Assembly (NCBI GenBank): GCA_964387825.1
Contig: CAYLWZ010000002.1
Location: 47,375 to 111,374, forward strand
Direction: 5' to 3'
From: an uncultured Candidatus Saccharibacteria bacterium
GTDB lineage: Bacteria > Patescibacteriota > Minisyncoccia > Minisyncoccales > GWA2-38-27
DNA: 64,000 bases
Position numbers and translations under genes: made by a program. Below, one piece after another: positions 2,604 to 59,906 of this stretch; the stretch's first letter is position 1, and each line of letters opens with the position of its first letter. Under the pieces are notes generated by a model. That model made no database searches and was not told where the DNA came from. It saw only the letters and a program-made list of their open reading frames with translations.

Positions 2604-2678
2604 AGAATCTTATAACCTGAAACTTGAAACTTATAACTTAGAACTTGGAACTTGGGTTACGGGTTACGGGTTACAAGA

Positions 2679-3128
2679 CTAGAACTCTAGTCCTCCTTCC
2701 CTCGCCCCATTTGCCAAGGATTTTATTCTTCCATGATATTTATACCCCCCTCTGTCAAAAACAACCTTTTTAATTTTATTTTTTAATGCTTTCTCGGCAA
2801 GTAATTTACCGACCCTATAGGCAATGGCAACTTTCCTTGAAACTTGTTTTTTCTCATCTTCTGCTTTTTTATCTTTCGGTTTTGAATTTTGAGTTTTGAT
2901 GGTTCGGCTTTGTTCACCATCAACCCCGAATTTGTCGAACGAGTTGAGCTTTCTAAGTTTAATATCGCTCAAACTTAAAATTATATTTCCTTTCTCGTCA
3001 TCAACAAATTGCGCATATATATGGTTTAATGATTTAAAAACAGAAAGGCGCGGAATCTTGGCTGTACCTTTTATTTTTGCTCTAATGCGCCGATGGCGCC
3101 TATATCTTTTTAATTGTTTTTCCAACAT
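2679..3128 (-). CDS. rplR: 50S ribosomal protein L18
   Basis: N-terminal RRHRRIRAKIKGTAKIPRLSVFKS…HIYAQ and C-terminal VFDRGGYKYHGRIKSLANGAREGGLEF are uL18 signatures; Lys/Glu-rich internal insertion. Confidence 0.8.
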   Translation of the reverse strand: MLEKQLKRYRRHRRIRAKIKGTAKIPRLSVFKSLNHIYAQFVDDEKGNIILSLSDIKLRKLNSFDKFGVDGEQSRTIKTQNSKPKDKKAEDEKKQVSRKVAIAYRVGKLLAEKALKNKIKKVVFDRGGYKYHGRIKSLANGAREGGLEF

Positions 3129-3235
3129 ATTATTAGATATTAGATATTGGATATTGGTCTATTTTTTACTCTATTTTCTATACAACTACTTTCTAATAAT
3201 TATACTTCCATTTTCTACTTTCTACTTTCCAATAA

Positions 3236-3784
3236 TTAAGCCCCTTCTGCCCCCATTACCTTTTTTCCTGTTTTTCTCCTGACATATTCTCCTATGTATC
3301 TTATTCCTTTTCCTTTATAAGGTTCGGGAGGACGTATCTTTCTTATTTTAGCGGCAACCTGACCAACTAACTCCTTATTAATACCTGAAACAGATATAAT
3401 GTTCTTTTCTACTGAAAATTTCACCCCCTCCATTTTTTTTATTAAAACCGGATGGGAAAATCCTACTTTTAAAATTAAGTTTTCTCCTTCTAAGGCAACT
3501 TTATAACCAATTCCCCGCAACTCTAATTTTTTTTCATACCCTTCTATCACTCCTCTTGTCATATTAAAAATAAGAGTCCGCTCCAAGCCCCAAAAAGCGT
3601 TGGTTTTCTTTGTTTCTTTTTGAGGAGAAATAAAAATCTTGCCGTTTTCTTGTTCGGCTTTAATTTCTTGTCGAATCTCTCTCTGGAGTTCTCCCTTCGG
3701 GCCTTTAACGATTACTTTTTGCCCTTCTATTTTTACTTCCACTCCCTCAGGTATTATAATTGGTTTTTTACCTATACGCGACAT
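3236..3784 (-). CDS. rplF: 50S ribosomal protein L6
   Basis: MSRIGKKPIIIPEGVEVKIEG…LKVGFSHPV… uL6 signature. Confidence 0.85.
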   Translation of the reverse strand: MSRIGKKPIIIPEGVEVKIEGQKVIVKGPKGELQREIRQEIKAEQENGKIFISPQKETKKTNAFWGLERTLIFNMTRGVIEGYEKKLELRGIGYKVALEGENLILKVGFSHPVLIKKMEGVKFSVEKNIISVSGINKELVGQVAAKIRKIRPPEPYKGKGIRYIGEYVRRKTGKKVMGAEGA

Positions 3785-10106: not shown

Positions 10107-10224
10107 AAAAACAATGATTTTTCCGCATCTATTTAGAACCGTACGGGCGGGCGACCCACGGGTCTCCCCTACGATTTTTTCAAATAAATATTGCCTATTT
10201 TCAGCGCGATTCGTATTTTGAAAA

Positions 10225-10275
10225 TTGGCTATATCAATCCCGCACATAAATTATGGGCGGGATTGATATAGCCAA
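10225..10275. promoter_or_regulatory. perfect 19-bp inverted repeat (ttggctatatcaatcccgc / gcgggattgatatagccaa) with 13-nt loop, between rplW and rplB
   Basis: read directly from the sequence; loop contains ccgcacataaattatg, which recurs at 58926-58941. Confidence 0.6.
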
Positions 10276-10283
10276 AATTGTTA

Positions 10284-13041: not shown

Positions 13042-14232
13042 TTATATCTTGACTACTACTCCGGCGCCAACTGTTTTTCCGCCTTCCCTTATTGCAAATC
13101 TCTGTTTCTCTTCAAGAGCGACTGGAGACATTAACTTAACGTTTAAATTGACCGTATCGCCTGGCATAACCATTTCCGTCCCTTCTGGCAAAACTACATC
13201 TCCAGTTACATCAGTAGTCCTAATGTAAAATTGCGGTTTATATCCTTTAAAGAAAGGGGTATGGCGGCCGCCTTCTTCTTTGGTCAAAATATAAATCTCG
13301 CCCTCAAATTCGGTATGAGGCGTAACTGTTCCCGGTTTGGCCAAAACCTGGCCCCTTTCAACTTCTTCTTTTTTTAATCCTCTGAGAAGAATTCCAACAT
13401 TGTCTCCTGCTTTCCCTTCATCAAGTATTTTATTGAACATTTCTATACTCACTGCTACTGTTTTTTTTGTATCTTTTAAACCAATCAACTCTACCTCTTC
13501 ATTAGATTTAATTATTCCTCTTTCAATTCTTCCGGTAGCAACTGTCCCTCGTCCTTCAATAGAAAAAACATCTTCAATTGCCATTAAAAACGGCTTAGCT
13601 GTATCTCTAACAGGTTCTGGTATATACTCGTCTAACGCCTTAACCAGGTCTAAAATCGGCTTAGCTGCTTCGTCATCGCTTGATTTACATCCCAGCGCTT
13701 TTAGGGCAGAACCGCGAATTACCGGAATTTCATCCCCGGGATATTCATACTTTTTTAAAAGTTCTCGAATCTCTGATTCAACCAAATCAATAATTTCCGG
13801 GTCGTCAACCATATCGGTTTTATTAAGAAAAACAACAATTGAGGGAATACCAACCTGGCGGGCAAGCAAAACATGCTCTCTTGTCTGGGGCATAGGGCCG
13901 TCAGGAGCAGAAACCACCAAAATGGCGCCGTCCATCTGAGCGGCTCCGGTAATCATATTTTTAATATAATCGGCATGCCCGGGACAATCTATATGGGCGT
14001 AATGCTTTTTTTCCGATTCATACTCTAAATGAGAAACAGATATCGTAAGACCCCTGTCTCTTTCTTCTGGAGCAGCGTCAATCTGGTCAACGCTTTTTTC
14101 TTTACTGTTAAAACCCTTCAAACTTAAAACATGAAGGATAGCGGCTGTTAAGGTAGTTTTACCATGGTCAACATGGCCAATAGTACCAACATTTATATGA
14201 GGTTTTGTCCTTTCAAATTTTTCTTTAGCCAT
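13042..14232 (-). CDS. tuf: elongation factor Tu
   Basis: [32 protein letters not shown]…DCPGHADY… canonical EF-Tu. Confidence 0.95.
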
Positions 14233-45858: not shown

Positions 45859-46043
45859 GCAGGTTTCTCCTCAGAAACTTTTTCTATTGCCCCGAAAGGA
45901 CAAACGCTTTCTCCCCCGCATTCCTTTAATTTCTCTTGGTCAATAATCCTCGCCTTTCCGTCATCCCCTATTTCCGTCGCCCCAGGACAGGACTGAACGC
46001 AAACCCCGCAGTTAATACATTTTTCTTTATTTATCTTTAACAT
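45855..46043 (-). CDS. 4Fe-4S ferredoxin (POR delta-like)
   Basis: CINCGVCVQSCP … CGGESVCPFGAI. Confidence 0.7.
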   Translation of the reverse strand: MLKINKEKCINCGVCVQSCPGATEIGDDGKARIIDQEKLKECGGESVCPFGAIEKVSEEKPA

Positions 46044-46060
46044 TTTAAAATTAGACCCAC

Positions 46061-46897
46061 TTAAATTTCTATTTTTTTGAAATCGACCTTGTTTTTTATC
46101 TTTGACCCCGCCCGGCGGGACAAATTTTTAAGCAATTCCTCCTCGTAAACCGGCTTTTGGATTTTATAAAAAATACCGATGGGGATCTGATTGTCGTTTT
46201 TGTCATAATCCCATTCCTCAATTTTTTTCAAGGTTTCTCTTTCTGAATTTTTCGCCTTATAAACCTTGGCGTTATAAAATTGGAAAGTGTTGAAAAAAGA
46301 AACACAAGGCTGAAGAATCTCAATAAAAGAAAATCCTCTGTGTTGAACCCCTTTAATAATCAAATCTTTAAGATGTTCTGTTTCAGCCGAATACCCCCGG
46401 GCAATGAATGTTGCCCCGGAAGCCAACATTAATTTCAAGGGATTGAAAGGCGTTTCAATACTGCCTTGAGGAGAGGACTTTCCTTTAAAGCCTCTTGGCG
46501 AAGTGGCCGTAAACTGGCCGGCAGTCAAAGCGAAATTTCTGTTATCGTGAACCAAAACAGTGATGTCGCTATTTCTTTTAGCAGCATAAATTAAATGAGA
46601 AATTCCTTCATTGTAAGTTCCTCCGTCTCCGACAGAAACTATAACCTTTAGGTCAGGATTACCTAATTTTATCCCTTCAGCCGAAATAACCGGCCGTCCG
46701 TGCAAAGAGGAAAAACTATTTATATCAAGATAGTCAATAATCTTTGAGGCGCAGCCGATTCCGCTAACCGCCACTAAATTTTCCTTAGCCAACCCTCCCG
46801 CCACCAAAGAAGAAATTGCCTTTTTTAAGGCGGCTAAAATACCGAAATTACCGCAACCAGGACACCAGGTATTTTTAGCATAAGTAGATAGATTCAT
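46061..46897 (-). CDS. porB: 2-oxoacid:ferredoxin oxidoreductase beta subunit (TPP-binding)
   Basis: …WCPGCGNFGI…GIGC… TPP-binding signature. Confidence 0.8.
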   Translation of the reverse strand: MNLSTYAKNTWCPGCGNFGILAALKKAISSLVAGGLAKENLVAVSGIGCASKIIDYLDINSFSSLHGRPVISAEGIKLGNPDLKVIVSVGDGGTYNEGISHLIYAAKRNSDITVLVHDNRNFALTAGQFTATSPRGFKGKSSPQGSIETPFNPLKLMLASGATFIARGYSAETEHLKDLIIKGVQHRGFSFIEILQPCVSFFNTFQFYNAKVYKAKNSERETLKKIEEWDYDKNDNQIPIGIFYKIQKPVYEEELLKNLSRRAGSKIKNKVDFKKIEI

Positions 46898-47068
46898 AAT
46901 AAATTTCTAATTGATCTAATTATTCTAATTAACCTAAACAAATCCCAAATCCCAATTTTCCAAAAGAATTGCTCAGGCATTGCTTAACCTGGTTAAGCAA
47001 TAGCCTGATTGAGAGAAATTTTGGGATTTGGAGTTTAGGGCTTGGTCATTATTTAGAAATTAGGTCAA

Positions 47069-48787
47069 TTAGGTCAATTTCTCTTCAATCTCTTCCGGTA
47101 AGAAAGGTCTAGCGTTGTATTTTAATATTTTCTTATCAACTTTAATACCGTAACAATTTAAGACCTTTTCCATTTGTCCCAAGCCGTTTGTTTCTATTAA
47201 GACAAGTTTTTTAACTCCTTTTAACGCGTTTTTCATCTGTTTTTCCGGAAATGGTTCAATAATAATCGGCTGGACCATTCTCATCCCTAACTTCTCCGCC
47301 ACCTCTTTTGCTGGTCCTTTCGTTGAACCCCAAACAATAAGCGCTTTTTTAGCTGTTTTCTTCCCGTAAACCTTAACCGCTTCTAATCTATCAACCTCTT
47401 TTCTCATTTCCTCAAATTTTCTTAGCCGCTTATTTTGCATTTCTTCTACCTTTTTTCCTTCTTCCACTGTAATTCCGAACTCGTCATGTTCATAACTGTT
47501 TGCTTTGACAATTGCATTTTTCTCCCCCGGAAAAGCAAGAGGAGAAATTCCATTTCTTGTTTTTTTGTATCTCAAATATTCACCCCCGCCTGCATTGGCT
47601 ATACCAAAGGCATTGCGGGCAGGCTTTTTGTTCCAAAGCAAAGGTTCTTCACGTTTAATTTTCTCTAAAATATTTTTATTAAAACTAAAGGTACTTTCGG
47701 AAACTTCCTTATCAAGTAATAAAATTGACGGTGTTTGGTACTTCCAAGAAAGATTTAAAATTTCTCCGGCCCAATAACAAGCCTCGTCAGCATCGCCGGG
47801 AGCGATAACAAACCTTACAATATCGCCATGCCCGGCTCCTAAAACAAAAAGTAAATCTCCCTGGCCAGTATAAGTAGGTACTCCGCTAGCAGGAGACATT
47901 CTTTGGCTTTCTACTATTACCAAAGGAGTTTCATTCTGGGCAGCCAAACTAAACCCTTCTACCATTAAAGCAAATCCTCCTCCCGAAGTTCCAACTATTG
48001 TCCTTGCTCCGGCATATGACGCCCCGATAGCCGCGTTCACCACCCCTGTCTCGTTTTCCAGTTGGGCAACGGCTATATTAAAATCTTTTTTGCGCTTGGC
48101 TAAATAATGCAAAATCCCGCTGGCCGGGGTCATCGGATAAGCAATGTAAAGATCTAAACCAGCTTTAACAGCGCCCAAAGCAACCGCTTCGTTCCCGGTT
48201 AAAAGAAGAAACTGCTTTTTCCCGCTTTTGTTCCCGCTAAAACGGACATTTAGCGGGACAATTTTAAATAAATTAGGGCTATCTTCAAAAGCGGCTTTCG
48301 CTACTTTTATATTTATTTCTTGAAATTTTTTAAATTCTTTTTTTAAAACCTCTTCTAATGTTTTCCAGTCAAAACCGATAATTTTTGCAAAAGCGGAAAC
48401 AAGAGCGATGTTCTCCATTATCGGCTTGCCGCCCACCTTTTCAACGATTGTTTTTATCGCCACCCCAATTCCTTTTCTTTTTCTAAAAGAAATCTCATCG
48501 CTATTGTAAATAATTATTCCTTTTTTGTCTAAATCGCTTTCGTGTTTTTTGATGGTGATTGCGTCCAGGGCTAAAAGAAAATCTATTTTTTCCCGATGAG
48601 ATAAAACTTCTTTTTCCGACGCCCTAATTTGAGAAAAATCATGGCCCCCTCTAATCAAGGATTGATAATCATCGTAAATAAAAATTCTATAACCAATCTG
48701 GGAAAATAATTTGGCAATTATAAGACCGGCTTTCTTGGAACCGCGGCCGGCGGCGCCTCCTATTAAAATTGAATAATCCTTAGCCAT
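47069..48787 (-). CDS. porGA: 2-oxoacid:ferredoxin oxidoreductase fused gamma-alpha subunit
   Basis: N-terminal gamma-like MAKDYSILIGGAAGRGSKKAG… then alpha-subunit domains; carries one PARNA element (47586-47624). Confidence 0.75.
   Translation of the reverse strand: MAKDYSILIGGAAGRGSKKAGLIIAKLFSQIGYRIFIYDDYQSLIRGGHDFSQIRASEKEVLSHREKIDFLLALDAITIKKHESDLDKKGIIIYNSDEISFRKRKGIGVAIKTIVEKVGGKPIMENIALVSAFAKIIGFDWKTLEEVLKKEFKKFQEINIKVAKAAFEDSPNLFKIVPLNVRFSGNKSGKKQFLLLTGNEAVALGAVKAGLDLYIAYPMTPASGILHYLAKRKKDFNIAVAQLENETGVVNAAIGASYAGARTIVGTSGGGFALMVEGFSLAAQNETPLVIVESQRMSPASGVPTYTGQGDLLFVLGAGHGDIVRFVIAPGDADEACYWAGEILNLSWKYQTPSILLLDKEVSESTFSFNKNILEKIKREEPLLWNKKPARNAFGIANAGGGEYLRYKKTRNGISPLAFPGEKNAIVKANSYEHDEFGITVEEGKKVEEMQNKRLRKFEEMRKEVDRLEAVKVYGKKTAKKALIVWGSTKGPAKEVAEKLGMRMVQPIIIEPFPEKQMKNALKGVKKLVLIETNGLGQMEKVLNCYGIKVDKKILKYNARPFLPEEIEEKLT
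47586..47624. repeat. GC-rich PARNA element, in-frame in POR alpha (encodes PARNAFGIANAGGG)
   Basis: ccgcctgcattggctataccaaaggcattgcgggcaggc shares both end motifs with the 36-bp family. Confidence 0.7.
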
Positions 48788-49569: not shown

Positions 49570-49869
49570 TTAGCTCTTCCAATTTTCCTGCTCTTTAGCC
49601 AAAAAATCTTCCAATTCTTTTTTATCCATTATCGTTGTCTCTATTTTTATATCCATCTTTAATTTAGTCAATGGCTCTTTTATTAACTCTATTAACTGGT
49701 CTTTGATGGGAATATTTAGAAAAGGAAAAGCCAGAACAATAATTGCCTTATTGCCTTCAACTTTTATATCCTTAATCATCCCAAGATTCAGAAGGGTCTC
49801 ATCAATAGCAGGATGTTTTATTCCTTTTAATAATTCTTTAACGTCCTCTGATGAAGTATTGTTGATCAT
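49570..49869 (-). CDS. DUF59/MIP18-family Fe-S assembly protein
   Basis: …IKHPAIDETLLNLGMIKDIKVEGN… DUF59 pattern. Confidence 0.55.
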   Translation of the reverse strand: MINNTSSEDVKELLKGIKHPAIDETLLNLGMIKDIKVEGNKAIIVLAFPFLNIPIKDQLIELIKEPLTKLKMDIKIETTIMDKKELEDFLAKEQENWKS

Positions 49870-50189
49870 TTGGCTAAAGGAATTTTTTTAGTTAGTTTAA
49901 TTGCTCCCGTGGGACAAACAGATTGGCACAATCCGCAAAAACAGCATTTATTAATATCAATTCGGGGTTGCTTTTTTATAGTTCCGTCTTTTTGTCTAAC
50001 TTCAACCATTGTAATCGCTTTATTGGGACAAGCCTCGGCGCATAAGCCGCATCCCAAACATTTATCCGGAGAAAAGCCAGGAATCCCTCTATAACCGTCG
50101 GGAATAGAAAGAGATTCTTTAGGAAACCTAACCGTAAGCGGCTTTTTAAACAGGTTCAATACCAATTTTGGAATAATCCTTAATTTCAT
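49866..50189 (-). CDS. 2x[4Fe-4S] ferredoxin (NuoI/MbhN-like)
   Basis: CLGCGLCAEACP … CCFCGLCQSVCP. Confidence 0.7.
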   Translation of the reverse strand: MKLRIIPKLVLNLFKKPLTVRFPKESLSIPDGYRGIPGFSPDKCLGCGLCAEACPNKAITMVEVRQKDGTIKKQPRIDINKCCFCGLCQSVCPTGAIKLTKKIPLAK

Positions 50190-50253
50190 ATTGCAAAAAT
50201 ACAGATATCTTTAGAGTTAGCTACTTTTATTTTTTTCACAAGTATTTTCTAAT

Positions 50254-51075
50254 TTATTTTTTCTCTAATCTTTCAATAATTTTTTTTACATCGTTAAAAG
50301 CTCTACTTTTATCTGGGAAATTCCTTTCTAATCCTGATTCTATTATTTTGGAATCGCATTGAACTGTGCCAATAATTTTACTTTTCAATTTCCCCAATTT
50401 ATTTATCATCTGGGATTCTATTTCTTTTGACTTAATTTTGTTTAAGGCCAACCAAAAATTTTTCATTTTCATATCACTACAAAAATCATTTACTCTTTTA
50501 GCAATTGAAATAGACTCAAGGGTAGGGTCGAGAATAAGCAAAACGATATCCACGTTTTCTGATATTCTCCTTCCAAAATGTTCAACTCCGGCCTTGGCGT
50601 CAATAAGATTTACGTAATCTCCTTTTACTATAAAATCCCTAACTACTTTTTCTACTGGTCCATCGCAACCTTGACCATATTTTTTAATCTTCCCTGCCTG
50701 AAATAAAATTATTCGTTTCCTTTTAACAAAATATTTATCTGGAATCTCTTTAAAAATATCTATCTTTTTTTCAGGCACGGGGATAGAATCGTTCAATCTA
50801 GTAAGCGGAGAGGGATCGTCTACGGGACAGGTAACCACCTTAGTTCCACCAAAAAAATCTATCAAGGCTTTTGGAAAGTCCTTTTCTTTTTTTAATCCGA
50901 GCATCAATCCGGAGAGTCCCCGAGGATTAGAGGCATCACCGTCTAAGGCAAGAACCTTGTATCCTTTTTCCTTTAATACATTTGAGATTAAAGTAACCAG
51001 AGTACTTTTTCCGCTTCCTCCTTTTCCAGAAATTAATATTCTCATTCCTTTTAGTTTTTTGTTTGTTTTTGGCAT
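50254..51075 (-). CDS. MinD/CooC-family P-loop ATPase (metallocentre maturation-like)
   Basis: ISGKGGSGKST deviant Walker A; CooC/Mrp-like length. Confidence 0.65.
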   Translation of the reverse strand: MPKTNKKLKGMRILISGKGGSGKSTLVTLISNVLKEKGYKVLALDGDASNPRGLSGLMLGLKKEKDFPKALIDFFGGTKVVTCPVDDPSPLTRLNDSIPVPEKKIDIFKEIPDKYFVKRKRIILFQAGKIKKYGQGCDGPVEKVVRDFIVKGDYVNLIDAKAGVEHFGRRISENVDIVLLILDPTLESISIAKRVNDFCSDMKMKNFWLALNKIKSKEIESQMINKLGKLKSKIIGTVQCDSKIIESGLERNFPDKSRAFNDVKKIIERLEKK

Positions 51076-51094
51076 TTTAACGTTTTGACAATTT

Positions 51095-51655
51095 TTATTT
51101 TAATATTATTCCTTTTCTTTCTTCCTTATTGTATTCCTCTACTATCTCGTTTACATTTTCCTTGATTATTCCAATTGCATCTTTGATTAAAGGTTCCCTT
51201 ATAATTACGGGAACAAATTTAGTTTTCATCCGAACAATATTTGGACCAATCATTTTTCCTATAATTACATTAACATTTTTCAGGACAGATGAAACTGCTT
51301 TTGCTTTTTCAGGATCTCCATGGATCCTAGATTCGTCTTCTTTATACTTAGTGTTTTCTCTTTTCTCTTGAAAAACTAAGTTTCCATTTGAGTATTCCCA
51401 TATTGAATAATATTTAGACATTCCGACATGGTCGTCTGGCTTTATTCTTTTACCATCGTCGGTTCCGATAGCAAATATTAATTTTTGCCCGATATCTTTT
51501 ATCGCGTCCTGGGGACAACCTTTTATAGCATTTCTTAAGCAGTCAGCTTTTTTGTCTTTTATTCTCGCCATCCCGTTTACTAGTTCTATCCCCTCCGGAC
51601 ATATTCTTGCGCAGATCCCGCATCCTATACATTTATTTTTACTTATATTTATCAT
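51095..51655 (-). CDS. 4Fe-4S ferredoxin domain fused to NifX/NifB-like domain
   Basis: CIGCGICARICPEG…C…CPQDAI then FAIGTDDGKRI…VIIGKMIGPN… NifX-like pattern. Confidence 0.6.
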   Translation of the reverse strand: MINISKNKCIGCGICARICPEGIELVNGMARIKDKKADCLRNAIKGCPQDAIKDIGQKLIFAIGTDDGKRIKPDDHVGMSKYYSIWEYSNGNLVFQEKRENTKYKEDESRIHGDPEKAKAVSSVLKNVNVIIGKMIGPNIVRMKTKFVPVIIREPLIKDAIGIIKENVNEIVEEYNKEERKGIILK

Positions 51656-51679
51656 TTTTTTTATTTAGTTGAATAATGG

Positions 51680-52798
51680 TTATCTATCCATATCCGCAGG
51701 ACAACCGTTTAAGCTCCAATAAATTACGGGTATATCCGCTACTTCCGCTCCCTTCAACAAAAATTCCAAGACCGGAATTAAATGCAGAAAAGAAGGGCCT
51801 TTAATTTTAACCCGTTCAGGATTGATCCCTCCATTGCCCCTTACATATATAGCTCCCTCTCCCCGGGCTATTTCATTTCTAACATATGCTTCTTTTTCCG
51901 GCAGGGCAAAAGGCGTTCCGACTCTCATTTTTTCATTAAGATAGAAGCCCAAAGGAATTTTATCTAATAGTTGCTTGATAATTTTAACACTTTCTTTTAT
52001 TTCTAACAATCCAATTTTAAATCTTGAATAAGAATCGCCTTCTTTTAAGACAGGCGCGTCAAAATCTACTTCTTTGTATATTTCATAAGGTTCGTTCTTT
52101 CTTATGTCCTGTAAAAATCCGCTGGCCCTTAAAACAGGACCGCTGGCCCCCAGCCTGACAGCCTCTTCCGATTTTAGAACCCCTATTCCTTTGGTTCTTG
52201 AAGCAAAAACAGGATCTTCTTTTTTAAAATAAGAAGTTGCCTCTATTATTTTGCCTAAAACTTTTAAAATTTTGTTTTCAATGCCTTCAGGCAGGTCCTT
52301 TCTCAAACCGCCGGGACAAATATAACCGGCTGGATATACTCTCCCCCCGGTAACAGCGGAAAAAATATCTAAAATATAATCTCTATAGCCAAAAGCTGTT
52401 TTAAAACCGGTGTCAAATCCGGTAGCAGAAGAAAGAGCTCCGAACCAAATAAGATGGGACTGAATCCGAGACAATTCGGCTAAAATTACTCTAACATATT
52501 TTGCTCTTTCCGGAACTTCAATATCGGCTAATTTTTCCACTGCTTCCGCAAAAAGCAAATTCCAAGCCAATGGCTCAAAAACGCAAATCCTGTCTGATAA
52601 AACCGCGTTCTGCCAAACATTTCTGTATTCCATTAATTTTTCAAATCCCCTGTGCAAGTATCCCGGGTCCGCTTTCGCTTCAACGACTTTTTCCCCGTCT
52701 AATTTTATCCTCACTGAAAAATTACCCGATCCAGGATGAGCCGGCCCGAATAAAAATTCCTGATATTGTCCTTTATTTTCTTCTTTCATTTTTGTCAA
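51680..52798 (-). CDS. [NiFe]-hydrogenase large subunit / NuoD-like subunit lacking NiFe-ligating cysteines (Ehr/Mbh-type)
   Basis: GPAHPGSGNFSV…, …EKLADIEVPERAKYVRVILAELSRIQSHL… NuoD/group-4 pattern; N-terminal site reads DRICVFEP (one Cys); C-terminus reads NGCPADMDR (one Cys, not the DPCxxC pair). Confidence 0.75.
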   Translation of the reverse strand: MTKMKEENKGQYQEFLFGPAHPGSGNFSVRIKLDGEKVVEAKADPGYLHRGFEKLMEYRNVWQNAVLSDRICVFEPLAWNLLFAEAVEKLADIEVPERAKYVRVILAELSRIQSHLIWFGALSSATGFDTGFKTAFGYRDYILDIFSAVTGGRVYPAGYICPGGLRKDLPEGIENKILKVLGKIIEATSYFKKEDPVFASRTKGIGVLKSEEAVRLGASGPVLRASGFLQDIRKNEPYEIYKEVDFDAPVLKEGDSYSRFKIGLLEIKESVKIIKQLLDKIPLGFYLNEKMRVGTPFALPEKEAYVRNEIARGEGAIYVRGNGGINPERVKIKGPSFLHLIPVLEFLLKGAEVADIPVIYWSLNGCPADMDR

Positions 52799-52833
52799 TT
52801 TAATCCCGCTGAAAGCAGGAGAAAATTGAAAAT

Positions 52834-53322
52834 TTAGATAAAGTATCCTTCTTCATTTTCTTTTTCTCTGTTATAAAATTTTTCTCTTACATGCGCTCGC
52901 CAGTCAAAATCCTTTAAAAACGGAGCCGGTCCCGGCCAATCTTCTAAAAATAATTCTGATAAATCCGAATTTCCTAAAAAATTCACCCCAAAAAGTTCGT
53001 GTATTTCTCTCTCATGAATTTGAGAAGAATCATATGTCTTTGAAACCGAGCCGATTTCCGGATTAATTCTGGCAATTTCTATTTTGATATTTAAACCCAT
53101 TTTCTTTTCTTCGCTCCAAATATGATAGATAAGTTCAATGACATTTTTTTCCAAAATATCAACCGCCGTTAAAAAGGAAAAGAAATTAAAACCCTCGCCT
53201 TTTAAAAAATCGCAGACATTTGGCAAATTATTCCGGCTGACCCTAAGCCAAATTTGGTTTTTCTCTTTTTTCAAAACTTCTGTCTCAAATTTTGATTTTA
53301 GAATTGAAATTAAATCACTCAT
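52834..53322 (-). CDS. NuoC-like (30-kDa) subunit
   Basis: position and size in Mbh-like gene order; NuoC-type fold pattern. Confidence 0.6.
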   Translation of the reverse strand: MSDLISILKSKFETEVLKKEKNQIWLRVSRNNLPNVCDFLKGEGFNFFSFLTAVDILEKNVIELIYHIWSEEKKMGLNIKIEIARINPEIGSVSKTYDSSQIHEREIHELFGVNFLGNSDLSELFLEDWPGPAPFLKDFDWRAHVREKFYNREKENEEGYFI

Positions 53323-53761
53323 ATCTCTTTATTAACTTACTAATTCCGTCAAAAATTGCTTCCGGCCTCGGAGGACAACCGGGAATATATAAATCTACAG
53401 GTAAATAATCTCCCAATCTTTTTATAGTGTTATATGAATCCCAATACATCCCTCCGCTTACCGGGCAGGACCCCAAGGCAATGACAATTTTTGGAGAAGG
53501 CATCTGTTCGTAAATCATTTTCGCTCTTTTAATTGACTTCATTGTCTGATAACCGGCAATAATCAGGCAATCGGCCTGCCTGGGGCTGGAAACCGGAATC
53601 AAGCCAAACCTTTCCATATCCCACCTGCTTCCCACTACCGGCAAAATCTCCATAAAGCCGCAGGAATTAAACCAATTAAAAACCCAGATAGATTTTGCTA
53701 CTTTTTTTAATTTTCTTTTTGATTCAGGCATAATTAAAAATTTAAAACCGTGTCTATCCAC
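53315..53761 (-). CDS. NuoB-like / hydrogenase small subunit
   Basis: …GSCPVSGG… and …PGCPPRPE… motifs; first site reads NSCGFME (single Cys instead of CC). Confidence 0.75.
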   Translation of the reverse strand: MDRHGFKFLIMPESKRKLKKVAKSIWVFNWFNSCGFMEILPVVGSRWDMERFGLIPVSSPRQADCLIIAGYQTMKSIKRAKMIYEQMPSPKIVIALGSCPVSGGMYWDSYNTIKRLGDYLPVDLYIPGCPPRPEAIFDGISKLIKRYE

Positions 53762-54702
53762 ACTGTTAAAAATCCGATGATAGACAATAAAGTAAGTCCC
53801 CCCCAGTAAGCTCTGGTTAAACGGCTGATTTTGAACCTTGAAGTAACTGTTCTAATTAAAGTTAAGCCGATAAATATTATTAAAAACAGCTTTAGAAGAT
53901 AAATAGAAAGCATTGCGGCAAAATTTGCTTGGATATTCCAAGGAAAGAAAAGAACAATAAACAAAGAAGCGATTGCAACCGCTTTTACCGCTTCGGCCAC
54001 ATAAAACATTGCCAAATTTCTCCCGGAATATTCCGCTAATGCTCCGCCGGCAATTTCCGAACCAGCCGCCTCAACATCAAAAGGAGTTTGGGATAATTCG
54101 CCGGCGATGATAATAAAAATAACTATTGTTTCTATTGAAAGCCCGATAATCCCGATTGGTCCAACCAAATTCCAGATATTATGGCTATAGATTGTATTCA
54201 AAGAGAAAATATTTGGAAACCCATTTTTGTAAATCAGCCAGACAGGAGCAAGACTGACGACGGCCAAAGGAAATTCGTAGCCCAGCATATTGATAATCAT
54301 TCTTTGACCGCCAAGGTTGGCATAGGGAGAATTAGAAGAAAATGCTCCTAAAACTAAACTCAAACCCGGAAATATAAACAGATAAATTACTAAAATGAGG
54401 TCTCCGGAATTTCCTAAAACAGATTTCCCGGCAATAGGAATATAAAACAAAATCAAAATAGAAACTGTCAAAGAAATCAAAGGCGACAGTTCAAAAATCC
54501 ATTTCAAGGAATGTTTCGGGATTATACTCTCTTTAACTATCAGTTTCTTTAAATCATAAAACGGCTGCAAAATAGGAGGTCCAACCCTTTTCTGCATTTT
54601 AGCGCTTAAAATTCTGTCAATTCCTTTAAAGAGCAAACCTAAAATCACGCTTCCAAAAATTATCGCAAGAGTCATTAAAAATTTTAAAATCAGGTTGGGC
54701 AT
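53734..54702 (-). CDS. NuoH/MbhM/CooK-like membrane subunit
   Basis: …MQKRVGPPILQPFYDLKK… (GxxxxxQxRxGP) signature; 8 TM. Confidence 0.75.
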   Translation of the reverse strand: MPNLILKFLMTLAIIFGSVILGLLFKGIDRILSAKMQKRVGPPILQPFYDLKKLIVKESIIPKHSLKWIFELSPLISLTVSILILFYIPIAGKSVLGNSGDLILVIYLFIFPGLSLVLGAFSSNSPYANLGGQRMIINMLGYEFPLAVVSLAPVWLIYKNGFPNIFSLNTIYSHNIWNLVGPIGIIGLSIETIVIFIIIAGELSQTPFDVEAAGSEIAGGALAEYSGRNLAMFYVAEAVKAVAIASLFIVLFFPWNIQANFAAMLSIYLLKLFLIIFIGLTLIRTVTSRFKISRLTRAYWGGLTLLSIIGFLTVWIDTVLNF

Positions 54703-54995
54703 ATCACTAAAAGAAAGATAATTAAACCGAAAATAAACAGAAAAATATAGTCGTTAGCGTTTTCTTTTTTGGTCTTTTGCAAGAAATTATACAGTTTCTC
54801 AAAATCTTTAAAAAATCCCCAATAGATATTTTCCAGTTTAACGTCTTTAGGAGGCTCTTCTCCGGAAAAATAAGAAACTGTTTGGGACGTTCCTTTATGG
54901 TATCTCTTTTCTCCAAGCAAATAAAAAAGGTAAACTACAAAAAGGATAAAAAAGAAAAAAATTAGAGCGATTTTTGGCTGCCAAATTATATGCAT
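54690..54995 (-). CDS. small membrane subunit (MbhI-like)
   Basis: 101 aa, 2 TM, translationally coupled inside the operon. Confidence 0.4.
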   Translation of the reverse strand: MHIIWQPKIALIFFFFILFVVYLFYLLGEKRYHKGTSQTVSYFSGEEPPKDVKLENIYWGFFKDFEKLYNFLQKTKKENANDYIFLFIFGLIIFLLVICPT

Positions 54996-55002
54996 TGTAA
55001 GT

Positions 55003-56511
55003 TTAATGGATTACGTTATTGATATAAACTTGTTGATTGATTAGCGCTTTTGCCGCCGGATTGACAAAAGAATCTACAAATTGTTTTGGGAAAAGGCCTA
55101 TCAAAATCATCAAGACCGCAAATATTGAAACGATAGCAACCGCCAATTTAGGAACCGGCTGGCAGTTTTCGGACTGTTTTCCAAGAAATATTGAGGCGAA
55201 AACTTTAACCAAAACCGCCAAAATCAAAATGCTTCCCAGGATTCCGACAACTGCCAAAGCAGGATTTAAACGGAAAACTGATTCGTAAATCATTATTTTT
55301 GAAGCAAAACCATTCAACGGCGGCATCCCGGACACGGCTAAAATTCCTAAAAGAAAAAACCCTGATAATAATGGCTCCTTATGGGCAAGTCCCCGAATTT
55401 TAAAAACATCTCTGGTTTTGCTAAGATAAACAATAACGCCGGCGATTAAAAACAGCAGGCCTATGTCCAAAACATCATTTATCATATGGAATAATCCTCC
55501 TTGGATTGCTTTAAATCCAAAATCAGTATTTGAGCTCGCCATACCGGAAGAAATCCCTAAAACTACATAACCTAATTCGGAAATAGCTAAATAGGCCAAA
55601 ATTCTTTTAAGATTATTTTCTTTTAGTGCCAGGAAAACTCCGACAAAAATTGAAAGGACTGAAAACAAAATTAGAATCCACCCTAAACTAATATTTGCGC
55701 CGAAAACATCAAAGGCGATTCTGAACAGAACATAGACAGCAGACAAGGAAGAAATTATAGACAAAATAATCACCGATATAGGAGATGCCTTATATGCTTC
55801 CGGCTTCCAAAAATAAAAAGGAAAAACTCCTACTTTTAACAACAAGCTGGAAGCGATGAAAGATAAGGCAACTTTGTCTATAAAAGAGAACTGAAGATTG
55901 TTGGCGATAATAGCCATATTCAAAAATCCGTATTCGCTATAAAGAAGCCCTACCCCAAACAGCAAGAACAGAGAACCGACGGCGAAAACAGCTAAATAAT
56001 GAAAGGCTGCTTTAAAACACTCTCTATCTCTGAAAAAAGCAATCAAACCGGCAGTAGCAATGGAACTTATTTCATAAAACACAAAAAGGGTGAAAAAATC
56101 TCCGGTAAATAAAAAGCCTAAAATTCCCGCCATAAGCAAGAAATAAAGAGCGTAAAATTTGTCCAAAGAGAAAGAGGGACTTAAAATTTTCCGGGAGTAA
56201 AGAAGAACTAAAGAGGCGATAAAAATGAAAACCAGAGCTAAAAATCCCGACAAAGCGTCTGCTGTCAAAATAATTCTTACGGGAAATCCCTGAGGCGAAG
56301 TCATTGAAGGAAATTCAGCTCCTACGCTATAAACAAATGTTCCTCCTCTGAAAATTGAACTATAAAGAAGAAAAGAAAAAACATTGACTGACGCCAAAAC
56401 CAAAAAAACCCAAAAATCTCTTATCTTTTTACTTAACTTGCTCAACAGAGGCAATAAAAATGCGCCTAACAAGGGAATAGCTATTATCAAAATAATAAAA
56501 TGAGAAGACAT
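55003..56511 (-). CDS. MrpD/NuoM-like antiporter subunit (MbhH-like)
   Basis: 502 aa, ~14 TM, NuoL/M/N family pattern. Confidence 0.75.
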   Translation of the reverse strand: MSSHFIILIIAIPLLGAFLLPLLSKLSKKIRDFWVFLVLASVNVFSFLLYSSIFRGGTFVYSVGAEFPSMTSPQGFPVRIILTADALSGFLALVFIFIASLVLLYSRKILSPSFSLDKFYALYFLLMAGILGFLFTGDFFTLFVFYEISSIATAGLIAFFRDRECFKAAFHYLAVFAVGSLFLLFGVGLLYSEYGFLNMAIIANNLQFSFIDKVALSFIASSLLLKVGVFPFYFWKPEAYKASPISVIILSIISSLSAVYVLFRIAFDVFGANISLGWILILFSVLSIFVGVFLALKENNLKRILAYLAISELGYVVLGISSGMASSNTDFGFKAIQGGLFHMINDVLDIGLLFLIAGVIVYLSKTRDVFKIRGLAHKEPLLSGFFLLGILAVSGMPPLNGFASKIMIYESVFRLNPALAVVGILGSILILAVLVKVFASIFLGKQSENCQPVPKLAVAIVSIFAVLMILIGLFPKQFVDSFVNPAAKALINQQVYINNVIH

Positions 56512-56512
56512 A

Positions 56513-56827
56513 TTATTTAGAATTTTCGGATGATTTATAAATCAAAATTGCCAGAGAAAGCAAAAAGGCGGTTATGGCTAAATTAATAACAATACTGGTA
56601 AGTATCAACGCTTGCGGAGTTGGAGAAACCATATTTAAATTTGGGGCATTGGTAAAAATCGGAGCTATCCCTCCTTGCCTGTATCCCAAACCTATTAAAA
56701 ACAAATTTACTCCGTTGCCGATAATGTTAACAGCCATGGCTATTTTAATTAAATTCTTTCTGAATATCGCCCCGAAGATTCCTATTATTACTAAAAAAAT
56801 TGTAGTTAGAAAAACAAAACTAATCAT
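56513..56827 (-). CDS. MrpC/NuoK-like subunit
   Basis: 104 aa, 3 TM, NuoK-like. Confidence 0.6.
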   Translation of the reverse strand: MISFVFLTTIFLVIIGIFGAIFRKNLIKIAMAVNIIGNGVNLFLIGLGYRQGGIAPIFTNAPNLNMVSPTPQALILTSIVINLAITAFLLSLAILIYKSSENSK

Positions 56828-57257
56828 TTTTTTTCGTCATTAATAAAATAACAAGAGACAAGGCCGAAGCTACTTCTATTCCTACAGCTAAATTCATTAA
56901 AAGAATAACTCCGCCGCTGTTGAGATAACCCGAGTTTATTCCAAAATGGATTGTTTTACCTAAAATTCCGGTTGTATTTGCCAAGAAATTATAAAAAAAT
57001 GTGTTTTTGAAAATGGCCAAAAAAGCTAAAATAATAAAAAATATAAGACCCAAAGATTCAAATAAAGAAAATAGGCCCTTTGACAACCTAATATCATCTT
57101 CAAAAACAACCAACATTAATACGGTTGCTCCGGCGATTATCACCCCTCCCTGAAATCCGCCACCAGGAGTCAAGTGGCCATGAGAAATGACATATAAACC
57201 AAATATAATTATTGGATTTAAAATTATTAAACTAACGATTTTAACTATTTTGGTCAT
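56820..57257 (-). CDS. MrpB-like subunit (MbhF-like)
   Basis: ISHGHLTPGGGFQGGVI MnhB-domain motif. Confidence 0.65.
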   Translation of the reverse strand: MTKIVKIVSLIILNPIIIFGLYVISHGHLTPGGGFQGGVIIAGATVLMLVVFEDDIRLSKGLFSLFESLGLIFFIILAFLAIFKNTFFYNFLANTTGILGKTIHFGINSGYLNSGGVILLMNLAVGIEVASALSLVILLMTKKND

Positions 57258-57555
57258 AAGTTTTCTTCTTGGTATCTTTGGTTAGAAATTTCGCTTCTGA
57301 GGGAGAAAAGATTAAAAAGATTCCCATAACGGCGGCGAAAAGAACCGTTGCTTCTCCCAATGTGTCCAGCCCGCGATAATCAAAAACTATACTGGAAACA
57401 ATATTATTGCTTCCAGTCTGTGTTTGAGCATTCTTGATAAAATAGTCGTCCATTTTTACTGTTTCAGGTTTTCCAAAAGGATGGATAAATAAGAAAACCA
57501 AAACAAGAAAAACAGATAAAATTAGAATGGTTGTTTTTTTAATCATTGTTCCCAA
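57241..57555 (-). CDS. MrpB-fragment-like subunit (MbhE-like)
   Basis: FDYRGLDTLGE motif of MnhB C-terminal domain. Confidence 0.55.
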   Translation of the reverse strand: MGTMIKKTTILILSVFLVLVFLFIHPFGKPETVKMDDYFIKNAQTQTGSNNIVSSIVFDYRGLDTLGEATVLFAAVMGIFLIFSPSEAKFLTKDTKKKTYDQNS

Positions 57556-57797
57556 CGCCCGGTTTTTTTAATGGCAATTATATAAATAGCCGAAGACAAA
57601 CCCGCTCCGACGGCCGCTTCGGCAATAGCTACATCAGGAGCTTGGAGAATATAAAATTCCCCTGCCAGCATTAAACTCATTGCCGCAAAATAAATAACTG
57701 AAACAAATAAATCTTTGCTTTTTATTAATAAAAAAGCCGAGAGAATCATACCGGTTAAAATTAAGCCCTGAATAATTTGGATTAGAGAAAAATTCAT
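57543..57797 (-). CDS. MrpB-fragment-like subunit (MbhD-like)
   Basis: APDVAIAEAAVGAGLS motif. Confidence 0.55.
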   Translation of the reverse strand: MNFSLIQIIQGLILTGMILSAFLLIKSKDLFVSVIYFAAMSLMLAGEFYILQAPDVAIAEAAVGAGLSSAIYIIAIKKTGRWEQ

Positions 57798-58132
57798 ACT
57801 GTTTTAGTCCTATTGTTTAATTTATCTATTATTGCTTCTTTTGGCTTTACTCCATTTCTATAAGCCGCTCTTGAAATCGCATGGCCTATGCAAGGTTGGA
57901 TTATTAAAAGAATTAAGGCAATTATAATCATACGTGCAGGCAAAGAGAAATTAAAATTTTCAACAATTAAAAAATATATCAAAGAAGTTAAAGTAAAAAA
58001 GAGAAAGCCAAAAGTGGTGGACAAGCCCGCGGAATGCAACCGGGTATAAACATCGGGAAACCTGAAAAGGCCTAAAACGCTCAAACTAAAAAAAATTAAA
58101 CTAACTGAAATAAATAAATAAACCAAAAACAT
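57794..58132 (-). CDS. MrpG/MnhG-like subunit
   Basis: LGLFRFPDVYTRLHSAGLSTTFG MnhG signature. Confidence 0.7.
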   Translation of the reverse strand: MFLVYLFISVSLIFFSLSVLGLFRFPDVYTRLHSAGLSTTFGFLFFTLTSLIYFLIVENFNFSLPARMIIIALILLIIQPCIGHAISRAAYRNGVKPKEAIIDKLNNRTKTV

Positions 58133-58134
58133 AA

Positions 58135-58410
58135 TTATTCAACATATTTAGTAAAATAAAGGATGCCTATAAGAGAAAGCAAGGCGTAAACAATGGCTAT
58201 ATCCGCTAAAATAACCTCTTTCCAAATAATAGAAAGCGTTATCAAGAGGGCGATAACTAGCGTATTTGCAACATCCAAAACAACCAATTTGTCAAAAATA
58301 GTCTTTACCAAAAAGACCCTTGCTAAAGCAATAAAAATAAGTATTGAAAAAATTAGAGCGGTTATTTGCCACATAGCTAATTCAATTATTCGGTAATTAT
58401 TTTGATCCAC
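58135..58410 (-). CDS. MrpF/MnhF-like subunit
   Basis: 91 aa, 3 TM, position between E and G. Confidence 0.55.
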   Translation of the reverse strand: MDQNNYRIIELAMWQITALIFSILIFIALARVFLVKTIFDKLVVLDVANTLVIALLITLSIIWKEVILADIAIVYALLSLIGILYFTKYVE

Positions 58411-58895
58411 TTGGCGAAATTTCCCGCTACCTGCTTGATATCCGGTTCCTTATTCTCGGTCCAAAGCCAATGAACATAAAGGTTATTTTCCTGGTCTACA
58501 TCTACTGAGAGTGTTCCTGGAGTTAAGGTGATAGAATTTGCCAACAAGGTTGTCCCGAAATCAGTTTTTAATTTCGGTGATATTTTTACAATTCCCGGCC
58601 TGATTCTTTTGGTAAGAATCCTATAAGCGACTGTCAAATTCGCCTTAATTAAACTGAAAAAAAAGGGACCAAAAATATAAATCAAAAATAAACCCCACCT
58701 TAAGGGACTTAAAAATTTTCGGCTGATTTTAATTTCAAGCAACCGGAAAATTCTCTGAATTATCAATCCGGTCACAACAGATAAGACGCTCCCTAAAATA
58801 ATTTCTTCTTTGCTCCAATAGAGAACATCTCCTGAGCCAATAGTTAAAACAAGGTAGATGACTAAGGAAAAAATAAAAGAAACGATAAAGTTCAT
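58386..58895 (-). CDS. MrpE/MnhE-like subunit
   Basis: …ANSITLTPGTLSVDVD… MnhE signature. Confidence 0.65.
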   Translation of the reverse strand: MNFIVSFIFSLVIYLVLTIGSGDVLYWSKEEIILGSVLSVVTGLIIQRIFRLLEIKISRKFLSPLRWGLFLIYIFGPFFFSLIKANLTVAYRILTKRIRPGIVKISPKLKTDFGTTLLANSITLTPGTLSVDVDQENNLYVHWLWTENKEPDIKQVAGNFAKWIKIITE

Positions 58896-58961
58896 TAAAT
58901 TTATTTCGGAATATAAATTATCTTACCCCCGCACATAAATTATGTACGGGAACAGGATAGT

Positions 58962-59681
58962 TTATTTTGCGAAAAGTCCGCAATAACAACGGCCGTCTTT
59001 TTGAATTTCCTGCTTATGCCAAACGCAGGGACAAATCTTCGGCCTATCATCCTCTATATCTCCGGTTACTCTTCTGCAGGGACAATATCGAGCCCCATAT
59101 TTTTTCTCGTTTGCCAAAAGTCCTTTTATTAATCCTTCAACCGCCGCTTTATCGGGATTTAATCTAAATCCGTTCTTTTTAGCGTAAACCTCATACTGTT
59201 TAATTATCTCTTCAATTTCTCCTCTTTTTTCTTTTTCCTCACTTTCTCCTTCTCTTTTATTTCCTTCTTCTTCCTTACTCCCTTCTTCTCTACCTCCTTC
59301 TTCCTTATTTCCTTCTTCCGTTCCATCGCTTTCTTTTCTTACCCCCTTAAGACCTTCCTTCTCTAACACTCCGTCCAACCACTCTTTTACAATTGGTTCT
59401 GGTCTCGCTCCGATAAATCCGCTAACCGGCTTTCCGTCTTTAAACAAAACTACCGTAGGAATCTGATTAATCCCAAATTTTTGAGCAGTCTGGGGAGTCT
59501 CGTCTACGTTAACTTTAGCCAAACTAATTTTATCTTCATAATCTTGGGCTAATTTTTCCAAAATCGGCGACAATACAAGACAGGGACTGCACCATGTAGC
59601 CCAAAAATCAACTAAAATCAGCTTATTGGCTTTTTTAATTTCTTCCTCAAAATTTTCATCGGTTAAAATTATTTCTGACAT
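58962..59681 (-). CDS. thioredoxin fused via acidic low-complexity linker to ferredoxin:thioredoxin reductase catalytic-subunit-like domain
   Basis: FWATWCSPC thioredoxin active site; linker EGNKEEGGREEGSKEEEGNKREGESEEKEKRGE; C-terminal YCPCRRV…ICPCVWH…GRCYCGLF FTR-catalytic-domain Cys pattern. Confidence 0.65.
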   Translation of the reverse strand: MSEIILTDENFEEEIKKANKLILVDFWATWCSPCLVLSPILEKLAQDYEDKISLAKVNVDETPQTAQKFGINQIPTVVLFKDGKPVSGFIGARPEPIVKEWLDGVLEKEGLKGVRKESDGTEEGNKEEGGREEGSKEEEGNKREGESEEKEKRGEIEEIIKQYEVYAKKNGFRLNPDKAAVEGLIKGLLANEKKYGARYCPCRRVTGDIEDDRPKICPCVWHKQEIQKDGRCYCGLFAK

Positions 59682-59906
59682 AAGTAAATACCTCGAATTG
59701 CGAAATGCAGTTTTTGCCTAAAAAGCATTTCATAATTCAAGGTAAATAGCAAAATTATTTTATTTTATAAAGTATATACCCCAAAGAATATTTTGTCAAA
59801 ACCGCGCATATCTCTCAAATATATTACTTGCTTCGTTATCAATAAAAACAATGAGAACTATTCTCATTGTTTTGGTGTTTTAGTCAACCAGCGAGAGAGA
59901 ATATAT

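Follow-up and report, generated by a model that had tools for sequence, protein, structure and literature searches.

Can one short gene furnish a bacterium with a complete ferredoxin-dependent thioredoxin system? The question is raised by trx-ftrC, a gene on the 64-kb stretch of contig CAYLWZ010000002.1 analysed here (the window; all coordinates refer to it unless a relative is named). A preliminary description of this DNA had proposed that the gene encodes a thioredoxin (Trx) joined through a linker to a domain resembling the catalytic chain (FTRc) of ferredoxin:thioredoxin reductase (FTR). The open reading frame occupies 58962..59681 on the minus strand, ATG to stop inclusive, and encodes 239 aa; the boundaries are exactly those given in that description, where the strand was unstated. 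From homology and gene context we consider it probable that trx-ftrC encodes a self-contained ferredoxin-dependent Trx system on a single chain.

The proposed fusion was borne out by domain searches, in which both halves scored above curated thresholds. Pfam Thioredoxin (PF00085) matched residues 4-100 (E 4e-31, 107.5 bits against a cut-off of 23.5), Pfam FeThRed_B (PF02943) matched residues 156-238 (E 5e-23, 81.5 bits against a cut-off of 22), and the NCBIfam thioredoxin equivalog TIGR01068 scored 118.4 bits against a cut-off of 96.8. All four motifs named earlier were read in the translation: WCSPC at 30-34, YCPCRRV at 199-205, ICPCVWH at 216-222 and CYCGLF at 232-237. The Trx domain (59358..59681, minus strand, residues 1-108) carries the active site W30-C31-S32-P33-C34 and the cis-proline P75, and it matched the structure of an ancestral bacterial Trx (4ba7, E 3e-36). 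Residue conservation and linker statistics were computed on 108 relatives, in which C31, P33, C34 and P75 were invariant. The AlphaFold model gave pLDDT values >90 in both the Trx and the FTRc domains (>88 throughout the FTRc residues), and Foldseek aligned it to Trx crystal structures with a target-normalised TM of about 0.9 (about 0.92) and an rmsd of 1.0-2.0 Å. When the full model was run against the PDB, thioredoxins alone were ranked, leaving the docking of the two domains uninformed.

The C-terminal domain (58965..59222, minus strand, residues 154-239) is predicted to be an FTRc/FDR-like [4Fe-4S]-disulfide domain, with the pattern C200-P-C202, C217-P-C219-x-W-H222 and C232-Y-C234. The preliminary description had let its reading depend on an alignment of these cysteines with the FTR catalytic residues; six of six fell in register, aligning with the cysteines of 7bzk, 7pwe and 4tpu, and all six were invariant among the relatives. 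Carrying over the numbering of Synechocystis FTR through the 7bzk alignment, we take C200, C217, C219 and C232 to be the cluster ligands, and C202 with C234 is presumably the redox-active disulfide. The closest solved structures were 7pwe (E 9e-19) and 4tpu (E 3e-17), with the plant and cyanobacterial FTRc chains more distant, from 5e-7 (7bzk) to 1.4e-3 (1dj7). The domain, having CYC rather than CHC and lying nearer to 4tpu than to plant FTRc, is by these alignments of the archaeal FDR type.

His86 of the CHC motif is important in plant-type FTR. Its position in the 7bzk alignment is held by Tyr233 here, as in FDR, and in the 108 relatives the residue between the last two cysteines was Phe in 59, Leu in 21, Tyr in 17 and His in 8. 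The spacing CPC…CPC…H…CYC that had been put forward was present, but its H turned out to be His222 of CPCVWH, not the catalytic His86. His222 of CPCxWH is nearly invariant in the fusion family and common in the wider FTRc-like consensus; it may or may not substitute for the missing CHC histidine. The protein ends 5 residues past CYC, and no rubredoxin match was found in the Pfam scan. Taken by its domains, the trx-ftrC product is a predicted member of the FTRc/FDR superfamily fused to a canonical thioredoxin.

The two domains are joined by a Glu/Gly/Lys-rich linker (59223..59357, minus strand, approximately residues 109-153), assigned as disordered from the pLDDT profile; the compositional bias extends over approximately residues 104-155 (18 E, 11 G and 8 K of 52). 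The 33 aa originally allotted to the linker were about right for its core, the stretch with pLDDT <50 being residues 116-145. The linker DNA is built of imperfect tandem repeats with units of 15 nt and 48 nt, so that the linker probably grew by slippage. Linkers in the family had a median length of about 10 aa (range 3-67), and the window protein, with about 48 aa, stands near the long end; the acidic linker would therefore be a lineage-specific expansion rather than a family hallmark.

A low-complexity linker encoded by imperfect tandem repeats is also what might be left where adjacent genes had been joined by a frameshift, an assembly error or low-complexity read-through. We give next to no weight to such an artefact, and rejected it. 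A search of 5.8 billion proteins (E <= 1e-5) matched at least 689 protein clusters, and both domains were found in 120 of the 120 matches listed (the best 120 of 689; length 194-259 aa), which derive from independent assemblies; linker length varies over the whole range given above, the cysteines are invariant, and the identical protein is held in separate NCBI, JGI and Logan records. Nearly all of the matches listed were annotated merely as "thioredoxin". The few named sources among them were Patescibacteria, Nealsonbacteria and one "Humimicrobiaceae" bin, and the assignment of the family to Patescibacteria rests on these names of homologues. A scan of genome contigs by a Trx peptide pattern yielded ordinary thioredoxins alone among the matches listed. 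Judged by these matches, Trx-FTRc is a large and uncharacterised family that is common in ultra-small (Patescibacteria-type) bacteria.

Fusions of this kind are not confined to thioredoxin. The FTRc-like superfamily as a whole had 724 representatives in a library clustered at 50% identity, and the partners recognised in the top 150 of the 724 included Grx (9), rubredoxin-like (7), Trx (6) and ferredoxin (3) modules, and others; FTRc-like domains were also found joined to Rieske and other modules. Fusion of the FTRc module to a likely donor or acceptor is, as far as these domain assignments go, a recurring theme.

How does the window protein compare with known systems? The Methanosarcina acetivorans FDR (4tpu) has an FTRc-like domain with the same CPC...CPC...CYC pattern and is among its closest solved relatives, but it ends in a rubredoxin domain and acts on a Trx that is a protein of its own, whereas the window protein has no rubredoxin and an N-terminal fused Trx. 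FDR is not known to have a variable subunit. FDR enzymes contain Fe-S and are related to FTRc; one of them is reported to reduce a thioredoxin of Methanosarcina (PMC6262447). The entry 7pwe ("Ferredoxin-thioredoxin reductase subunit B", 196 aa) has the same order of modules, an N-terminal Trx-fold and a C-terminal FTRc-like domain, but its N-terminal module is Grx/methanoredoxin-like (CGFC) instead of a canonical thioredoxin, and it has CPCLYR where the Trx-FTRc family has CPCxWH. The plant and cyanobacterial enzymes, with FTRc, a variable subunit (FTRv) and free Trx f/m (1dj7, 2pu9, 7bzk), belong to the same Pfam family, have the six cysteines in register and follow the same logic, from ferredoxin through the 4Fe-4S/disulfide centre to Trx; they differ in being distant (5e-7 to 1e-3), in having His86 in place of Tyr, and in that their Trx is separate rather than covalently attached. 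NTRC of chloroplasts and cyanobacteria likewise holds a reductase and its thioredoxin in one polypeptide (PMC9025218), but it is an NADPH-dependent flavoenzyme with a C-terminal Trx, and its reductase module is not homologous to FTRc. Through the FFTR/DTR flavin thioredoxin reductases, too, anaerobes reduce Trx at the expense of ferredoxin (PMC9025218); these are flavoproteins on separate polypeptides, whereas the system in the window is predicted to be of the Fe-S type on a single chain. The relative L210, described below, has a TrxR-type protein without the HRR motif beside a ferredoxin gene, which is comparable to this type. In the accessible literature we found no description of a Trx-FTRc fusion and no paper on 7PWE, and an earlier mention is possible. 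We would class Trx-FTRc as a new variation on the thioredoxin-reducing systems already known, its nearest precedents being FDR, the Grx-FTRc fusion and, by analogy only, NTRC.

Electron donor and transfer between the domains

In the mechanism that we favour, the C-terminal FDR/FTRc-like domain would, by homology, bind a [4Fe-4S] cluster through C200, C217, C219 and C232 beside the disulfide C202-C234. Ferredoxin reduced by POR, encoded 10 kb downstream, would deliver two successive electrons and open C202-C234, as the gene context suggests; the reducing equivalents would then pass by thiol-disulfide exchange to C31/C34 of the N-terminal Trx, and the reduced Trx domain would act on disulfides or persulfides of client proteins. 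Ferredoxin as the donor and thioredoxin as the acceptor are what we infer from homology together with gene context.

The ferredoxin-fed single-chain reading, already put forward in the preliminary description, drew support from FDR homology and from several features of the gene context. Relatives of the fusion gene are referred to by their locus numbers. In three of them, L088 (3-nt gap), L090 and L087, the fusion gene is immediately preceded by a small gene for a single-cluster ferredoxin, which in L087 has a Gly/Arg tail. Within the window, a minus-strand group at 45867..48787 comprises a POR/OFOR gamma-alpha fusion (47069-48787), the POR beta subunit (46061-46897) and, directly after beta, a 58-aa single-cluster ferredoxin (45867-46043) which is 57% identical to the ferredoxin directly preceding trx-ftrC in L090. 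The POR of the window is the likely source of reducing power. The 58-aa ferredoxin has a CxxCxxC...CP pattern plus two extra cysteines (C19, C41).

The strongest single piece of context evidence came from L210, which has the same membrane-complex operon; its large subunit and that of the window share 79% identity. In the slot ahead of that operon, L210 has (2119-3646) a free Trx, a TrxR-type flavoprotein and a 50-aa ferredoxin in place of the fusion gene. The Trx has the motif WCQPC and is 39% identical to the Trx domain of the window; the flavoprotein is of the low-molecular-weight TrxR type with a CATCD redox motif, and has YHG replacing HRR. The HRR motif of low-Mr TrxRs binds the 2'-phosphate of NADPH. 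The L210 arrangement reads as a non-orthologous replacement, and a split Trx system at the position of the fusion is what is expected if the fusion is itself a thioredoxin system. The preliminary description had noted that a conventional TrxB would make the fusion redundant; no TrxB (CATCD motif) and no other WCxPC protein was found within the 64-kb window.

We also considered that the donor is not free ferredoxin, and that the domain is served by the membrane complex or another redox protein, runs in reverse or acts as a thiol redox sensor. The joining of FTRc-like domains to rubredoxin-like, Rieske and other modules points to a diversity of donors, and the catalytic His86 is missing. Yet three relatives have a ferredoxin gene immediately beside the fusion gene, such a gene is retained in the slot in L210, and FDR, which of the characterised relatives stands closest, is described as ferredoxin-dependent (PMC6262447), as its name also says. 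We regard a donor other than ferredoxin as quite improbable.

Several observations weigh against a ferredoxin-dependent Trx system on one chain. The Trx motif is WCSPC and not WCGPC, at a position that varies across the family (M, S, G, T and others). The CHC histidine is absent: the window protein has Tyr in its place, and most members of the family have Phe or Leu. A tblastn search of the 64-kb window for FTRv gave no match, a weak negative as the query sequence was unverified. No biochemistry for any member of the Trx-FTRc family was found in the literature search. At five of the ten fusion loci at which gene context was compared (L004, L005, L086, L088 and L091), no membrane-complex operon lies beside the fusion. 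In the AlphaFold model of the window protein the relative placement of the domains was not confident (pTM 0.51), and in that of P0044, a member with an 8-aa linker, the last Trx helix was continuous with the first FTRc helix over residues 93-127 (pTM 0.61).

The continuous helix in P0044, if right, may make docking within one chain difficult in the short-linker members. Electron transfer might take place within one chain or between the chains of a dimer, and the flexible linker of the window protein would allow either; on these models, inter-subunit transfer in a dimer is a live alternative.

Operon position, membrane complex and rival roles

Where does the gene stand in relation to its neighbours? 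A sigma-70-like promoter (59771..59799, minus strand; TTGACA-17 nt-TATACT, 11 of 12 consensus positions) lies ~90 nt 5' of the start codon, and a terminator-like 13-bp perfect hairpin (59845-59873) follows the preceding ybaB-like gene, so that trx-ftrC is probably first in its transcription unit. Downstream on the same strand is mnhE (58386-58895), and the gap of 66 bp previously noted before this gene (there called mrpE) was measured as 58896-58961, 66 nt. With mnhE begins the "Ehr" Mrp/Mbx-type operon (49866..58895, minus strand), assigned from domain searches and structure matches to MBS. Its order is mnhE, mrpF, mnhG, mbhD, mbhE, mnhB, nuoK-like, nuoL/Mrp-antiporter-like and a 101-aa ORF, followed by nuoH-like, nuoB-like (53315-53761), nuoC-like, nuoD-like (51680-52798), two inserted genes and nuoI-like (49866-50189).

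The inserted genes (50254-51655, minus strand) encode a ferredoxin fused to Nitro_FeMo-Co (NifB/NifX-like) and a ParA/NUBPL-like P-loop ATPase. No genes are inserted at this place in L002 and L210, where nuoI-like comes straight after nuoD-like, and genes of the inserted types (Fer4/Nitro_FeMo-Co, ParA/NUBPL-like) flank the fusion gene in L004 and L088.

Among the ten contexts, mnhE was found directly downstream of the fusion gene on the same strand in five independent lineages: after a 66-nt gap in the window, with a 4-nt overlap in L002/L003, and after gaps of 17 nt in L087, 9 nt in L089 and 18 nt in L090. That this arrangement has been kept in five lineages suggests that the cell employs the complex and the thioredoxin system jointly.

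The complex itself is, by its cysteine pattern and structure matches, not a hydrogenase. The NuoD-like subunit matched chain L of the Pyrococcus furiosus membrane-bound sulfane reductase, MBS (6u8y), at 2.6e-81 as against 5e-46 for the hydrogenase MBH, has the MBS-specific RICVxEP and CPxDxDR motifs, and keeps 2 of the 4 NiFe cysteines. The NuoB-like subunit matched MbsJ (6u8y J) at 1e-44 with the aligned stretch free of gaps; it has three proximal-cluster cysteines alone, and Phe at the position of the non-ligating MbsJ Cys25. The same MBS-type cysteine pattern was seen in L002, L087 and L210; the defining features (2 of 4 NiFe Cys, three-Cys proximal cluster) were taken from PMC7684303. MBS cleaves the S-S bonds of polysulfide at its three-Cys cluster, with a proposed mechanism modelled partly on FTR (Yu et al., PMC7684303), and Ehr proteins without the NiFe cysteines, and hence unable to bind NiFe, have been described from the candidate phyla radiation, thioredoxin being unmentioned there (Jaffe et al., PMC7304191). 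Of the solved structures, that of P. furiosus MBS (formerly MBX) thus fits the NuoD-like and NuoB-like subunits best, and the motifs and the three-Cys cluster are held in common; but two proton pumps are reported for MBS where one antiporter-like large subunit was seen in the window operon, and the window complex has a bacterial (Patescibacteria-type) host and two extra Fe-S-related genes before nuoI. Proteins from Thermococci, Thermoplasmata and Caldatribacteriota bins share 61-68% identity with the large subunit of the Patescibacteria-type complex, a high figure across domains that suggests lateral transfer of the complex.

A further hint of sulfur or thiol chemistry was seen directly upstream of the fusion gene, where five relatives have a CsoR-family gene. 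These genes lie at L002 7712-7996, L086 5745-5993 and L089 4471-4725, all of the EDC...ENLTSC/ENLFSC type, and at L087 5146-5394 and L090 1332-1580, with Asp at the Asn position; the spacing to the fusion gene is 4-7 nt in L002 and L086. The encoded regulators have Cys...Asn/Asp...Cys instead of the Cu-binding Cys...His...Cys, and their best structural match was CstR, the persulfide sensor of Streptococcus pneumoniae (7MQ1, 2e-9). In CstR an Asn (N55) stands in for the Cu-binding His (PMC8643695). No CstR homologue was found within the 64-kb window.

In a more distant relative, L211 (9060-15296), HdrA-, HdrC- and HdrB(CCG)-like genes come after a soluble NuoB-C-D-I-like module; the large subunit of this module is 63% identical to that of the window, and no Mrp-type membrane genes lie upstream.

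These neighbours raise the question of whether Trx-FTRc is dedicated to the MBS-type complex and serves as its soluble thiol partner in a sulfane-sulfur/polysulfide response. The complex would cleave S-S bonds at its three-Cys [4Fe-4S] cluster, and the Trx would clear protein persulfides and polysulfides or reset a CstR-type sensor. Adjacency to mnhE in five lineages (in one case by the 4-nt overlap) is consistent with such a role, as are the best matches of the large and small subunits to MBS (6u8y L, well ahead of MBH, and 6u8y J), the MBS-type cysteine pattern with its Phe at MbsJ C25, the FTR-like mechanism of polysulfide reduction by MBS (PMC7684303), the C-N/D-C fingerprint of CstR in the regulators upstream in five relatives (best match 7MQ1), the retention of a Trx system in the slot in L210, and the tie of a related NuoBCDI-like module to HdrABC-like genes in L211. 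But 5 of 10 fusion genes lie away from the complex, the window has no CstR-like gene, a strong hairpin separates trx-ftrC from mnhE in the window, and adjacency argues for co-regulation rather than a common pathway. We consider this role possible, if on balance doubtful. The complex family is repeatedly accompanied by disulfide-reducing systems, and a functional link between Trx and complex is proposed from gene order tentatively; the conservative reading, which is possible, is that two ferredoxin-consuming systems are co-regulated. In its broadest form the proposal would be that in a clade of Patescibacteria a Trx system (the fusion, or Trx with a TrxR-like protein and ferredoxin) is an obligatory partner of a ferredoxin-oxidising, ion-pumping MBS-type complex, and that with the CstR-like sensor these form a module for sulfane-sulfur/disulfide respiration or detoxification; we would put this forward as speculation from the gene neighbourhoods, more apt to be wrong than right.

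In genomes without the complex, the fusion was found among SUF, IscS/NifU, MnmA, NifB-like, ParA-like Fe-S ATPase and UDG genes, and the protein might then serve mainly in an Fe-S/sulfur relay, in which electrons from ferredoxin reduce persulfides or disulfides on cysteine desulfurase, SUF and MnmA-type proteins. SufC/SufBD, IscS/NifU, MnmA, NifB-like, ParA/NUBPL-like and Fe-S enzyme UDG genes recur near the fusion (L004, L005, L087, L088 and L090), and the window operon has Fer4-Nitro_FeMo-Co, ParA-like and FeS_assembly_P genes. The genomes are, however, small and compact, so that neighbours may be coincidental; no constant gene pairing was seen, and the canonical Trx domain suggests a broad range of clients. 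A main role in such a relay seems to us unlikely.

The hairpin between trx-ftrC and mnhE

A palindromic motif shared between the gap before mnhE and the hairpin upstream of rplB had been pointed out in the preliminary description, and proved to be an exact 17-mer (CCCGCACATAAATTATG) set in stable folds in both gaps. The hairpin in the trx-ftrC/mnhE gap (58913..58965, minus strand) overlaps the trx-ftrC stop codon and takes up most of the 66 nt before mnhE, has its apical palindrome at 58928-58950 and no U-tract, and folds with a dG of -27.4 kcal/mol (z -4.7). The second copy, in the rplW-rplB spacer (10225..10279, minus strand; core 10239-10261), folds with a dG of -36.3 (z -8.2). The lower stems around the two cores differ in sequence, yet pair. 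With up to 3 mismatches allowed, the 17-mer had 4 matches in the window against a shuffle mean of 0.22. The trx-ftrC/mnhE junction in relatives is -4 to 18 nt, so that the gap hairpin would have been added in the lineage of the window. The rplW-rplB spacer (10108-10283, about 176 nt) is unusually long for an S10 operon, and its GC-rich part (10139-10175) folded no better than shuffled sequences (z -0.9).

We examined how widely the element is spread. The 17-mer was found in at least 118 metagenome stretches (L092-L209), on contigs of 28-53% GC, usually with one copy per locus, and the element is 23-27 nt long. Among the matches listed, it was a perfect palindrome (consensus RYCCCGCACATAAATTATGTGCGGGRY) in 61 of 95 unique instances; 98 of 120 instances were intergenic, 32 of 47 measured distances placed it within 65 nt after a stop codon, it stood 10 times between convergent and 4 times between divergent genes, and neither strand was favoured with respect to transcription (12 against 11). 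No copy was found in 838 kb of unrelated bacterial loci or in the other Trx-FTRc loci. With Rfam, both hairpins gave only sub-threshold hairpin-like noise at gathering and permissive thresholds, and the palindrome was not found printed in the literature searched. The palindrome is, as far as its distribution can tell, a real, low-copy, widespread and undescribed hairpin family.

Two classes of element were considered and set aside. A high-copy REP element was rejected, the palindrome usually having one copy per locus and being absent from the other Trx-FTRc loci and the 838 kb of unrelated genomes. A transcription-factor operator was judged unlikely, as the palindrome mostly follows stop codons, stands between convergent more often than divergent genes, and in some organisms forms P3 of RNase P RNA. 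In L134 (5300-5324) and L112 (~14083-14105, reverse strand) it corresponds to model positions 20-44 of bacterial RNase P RNA (Rfam RF00010), which make up the P3 helix; this identity suggests a role at the RNA level or a shared binding partner. As a hairpin the palindrome might mark 3' ends or take part in processing; alternatively, a conserved protein might bind to it. Since there is no U-tract and the site lies within an operon, the gap hairpin more likely modulates transcription than terminates it.

Meaning for ultra-small bacteria

If the proposed mechanism is true, nature would have in Trx-FTRc a ferredoxin:thioredoxin system on a single chain, comparable to NTRC but of the Fe-S type, and its small size (about 200 aa) would make it a tractable protein for studying disulfide reduction by an Fe-S cluster. 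Many ultra-small anaerobes could then keep their thiols reduced straight from ferredoxin, without NADPH. The main added interest lies in the conserved linkage to the MBS-type complex, in its replacement by a split system and in the CstR-type regulators upstream; the position at the head of the operon, together with the split-system replacement in L210, offers a concrete hypothesis, open to test, on what the Patescibacteria "Ehr" complex does. Should Trx-FTRc prove to be the thiol partner of that complex, this would provide a substrate class for the "Ehr" complexes of these bacteria, and would tie thiol/disulfide chemistry to energy conservation in organisms supposed to be purely fermentative.

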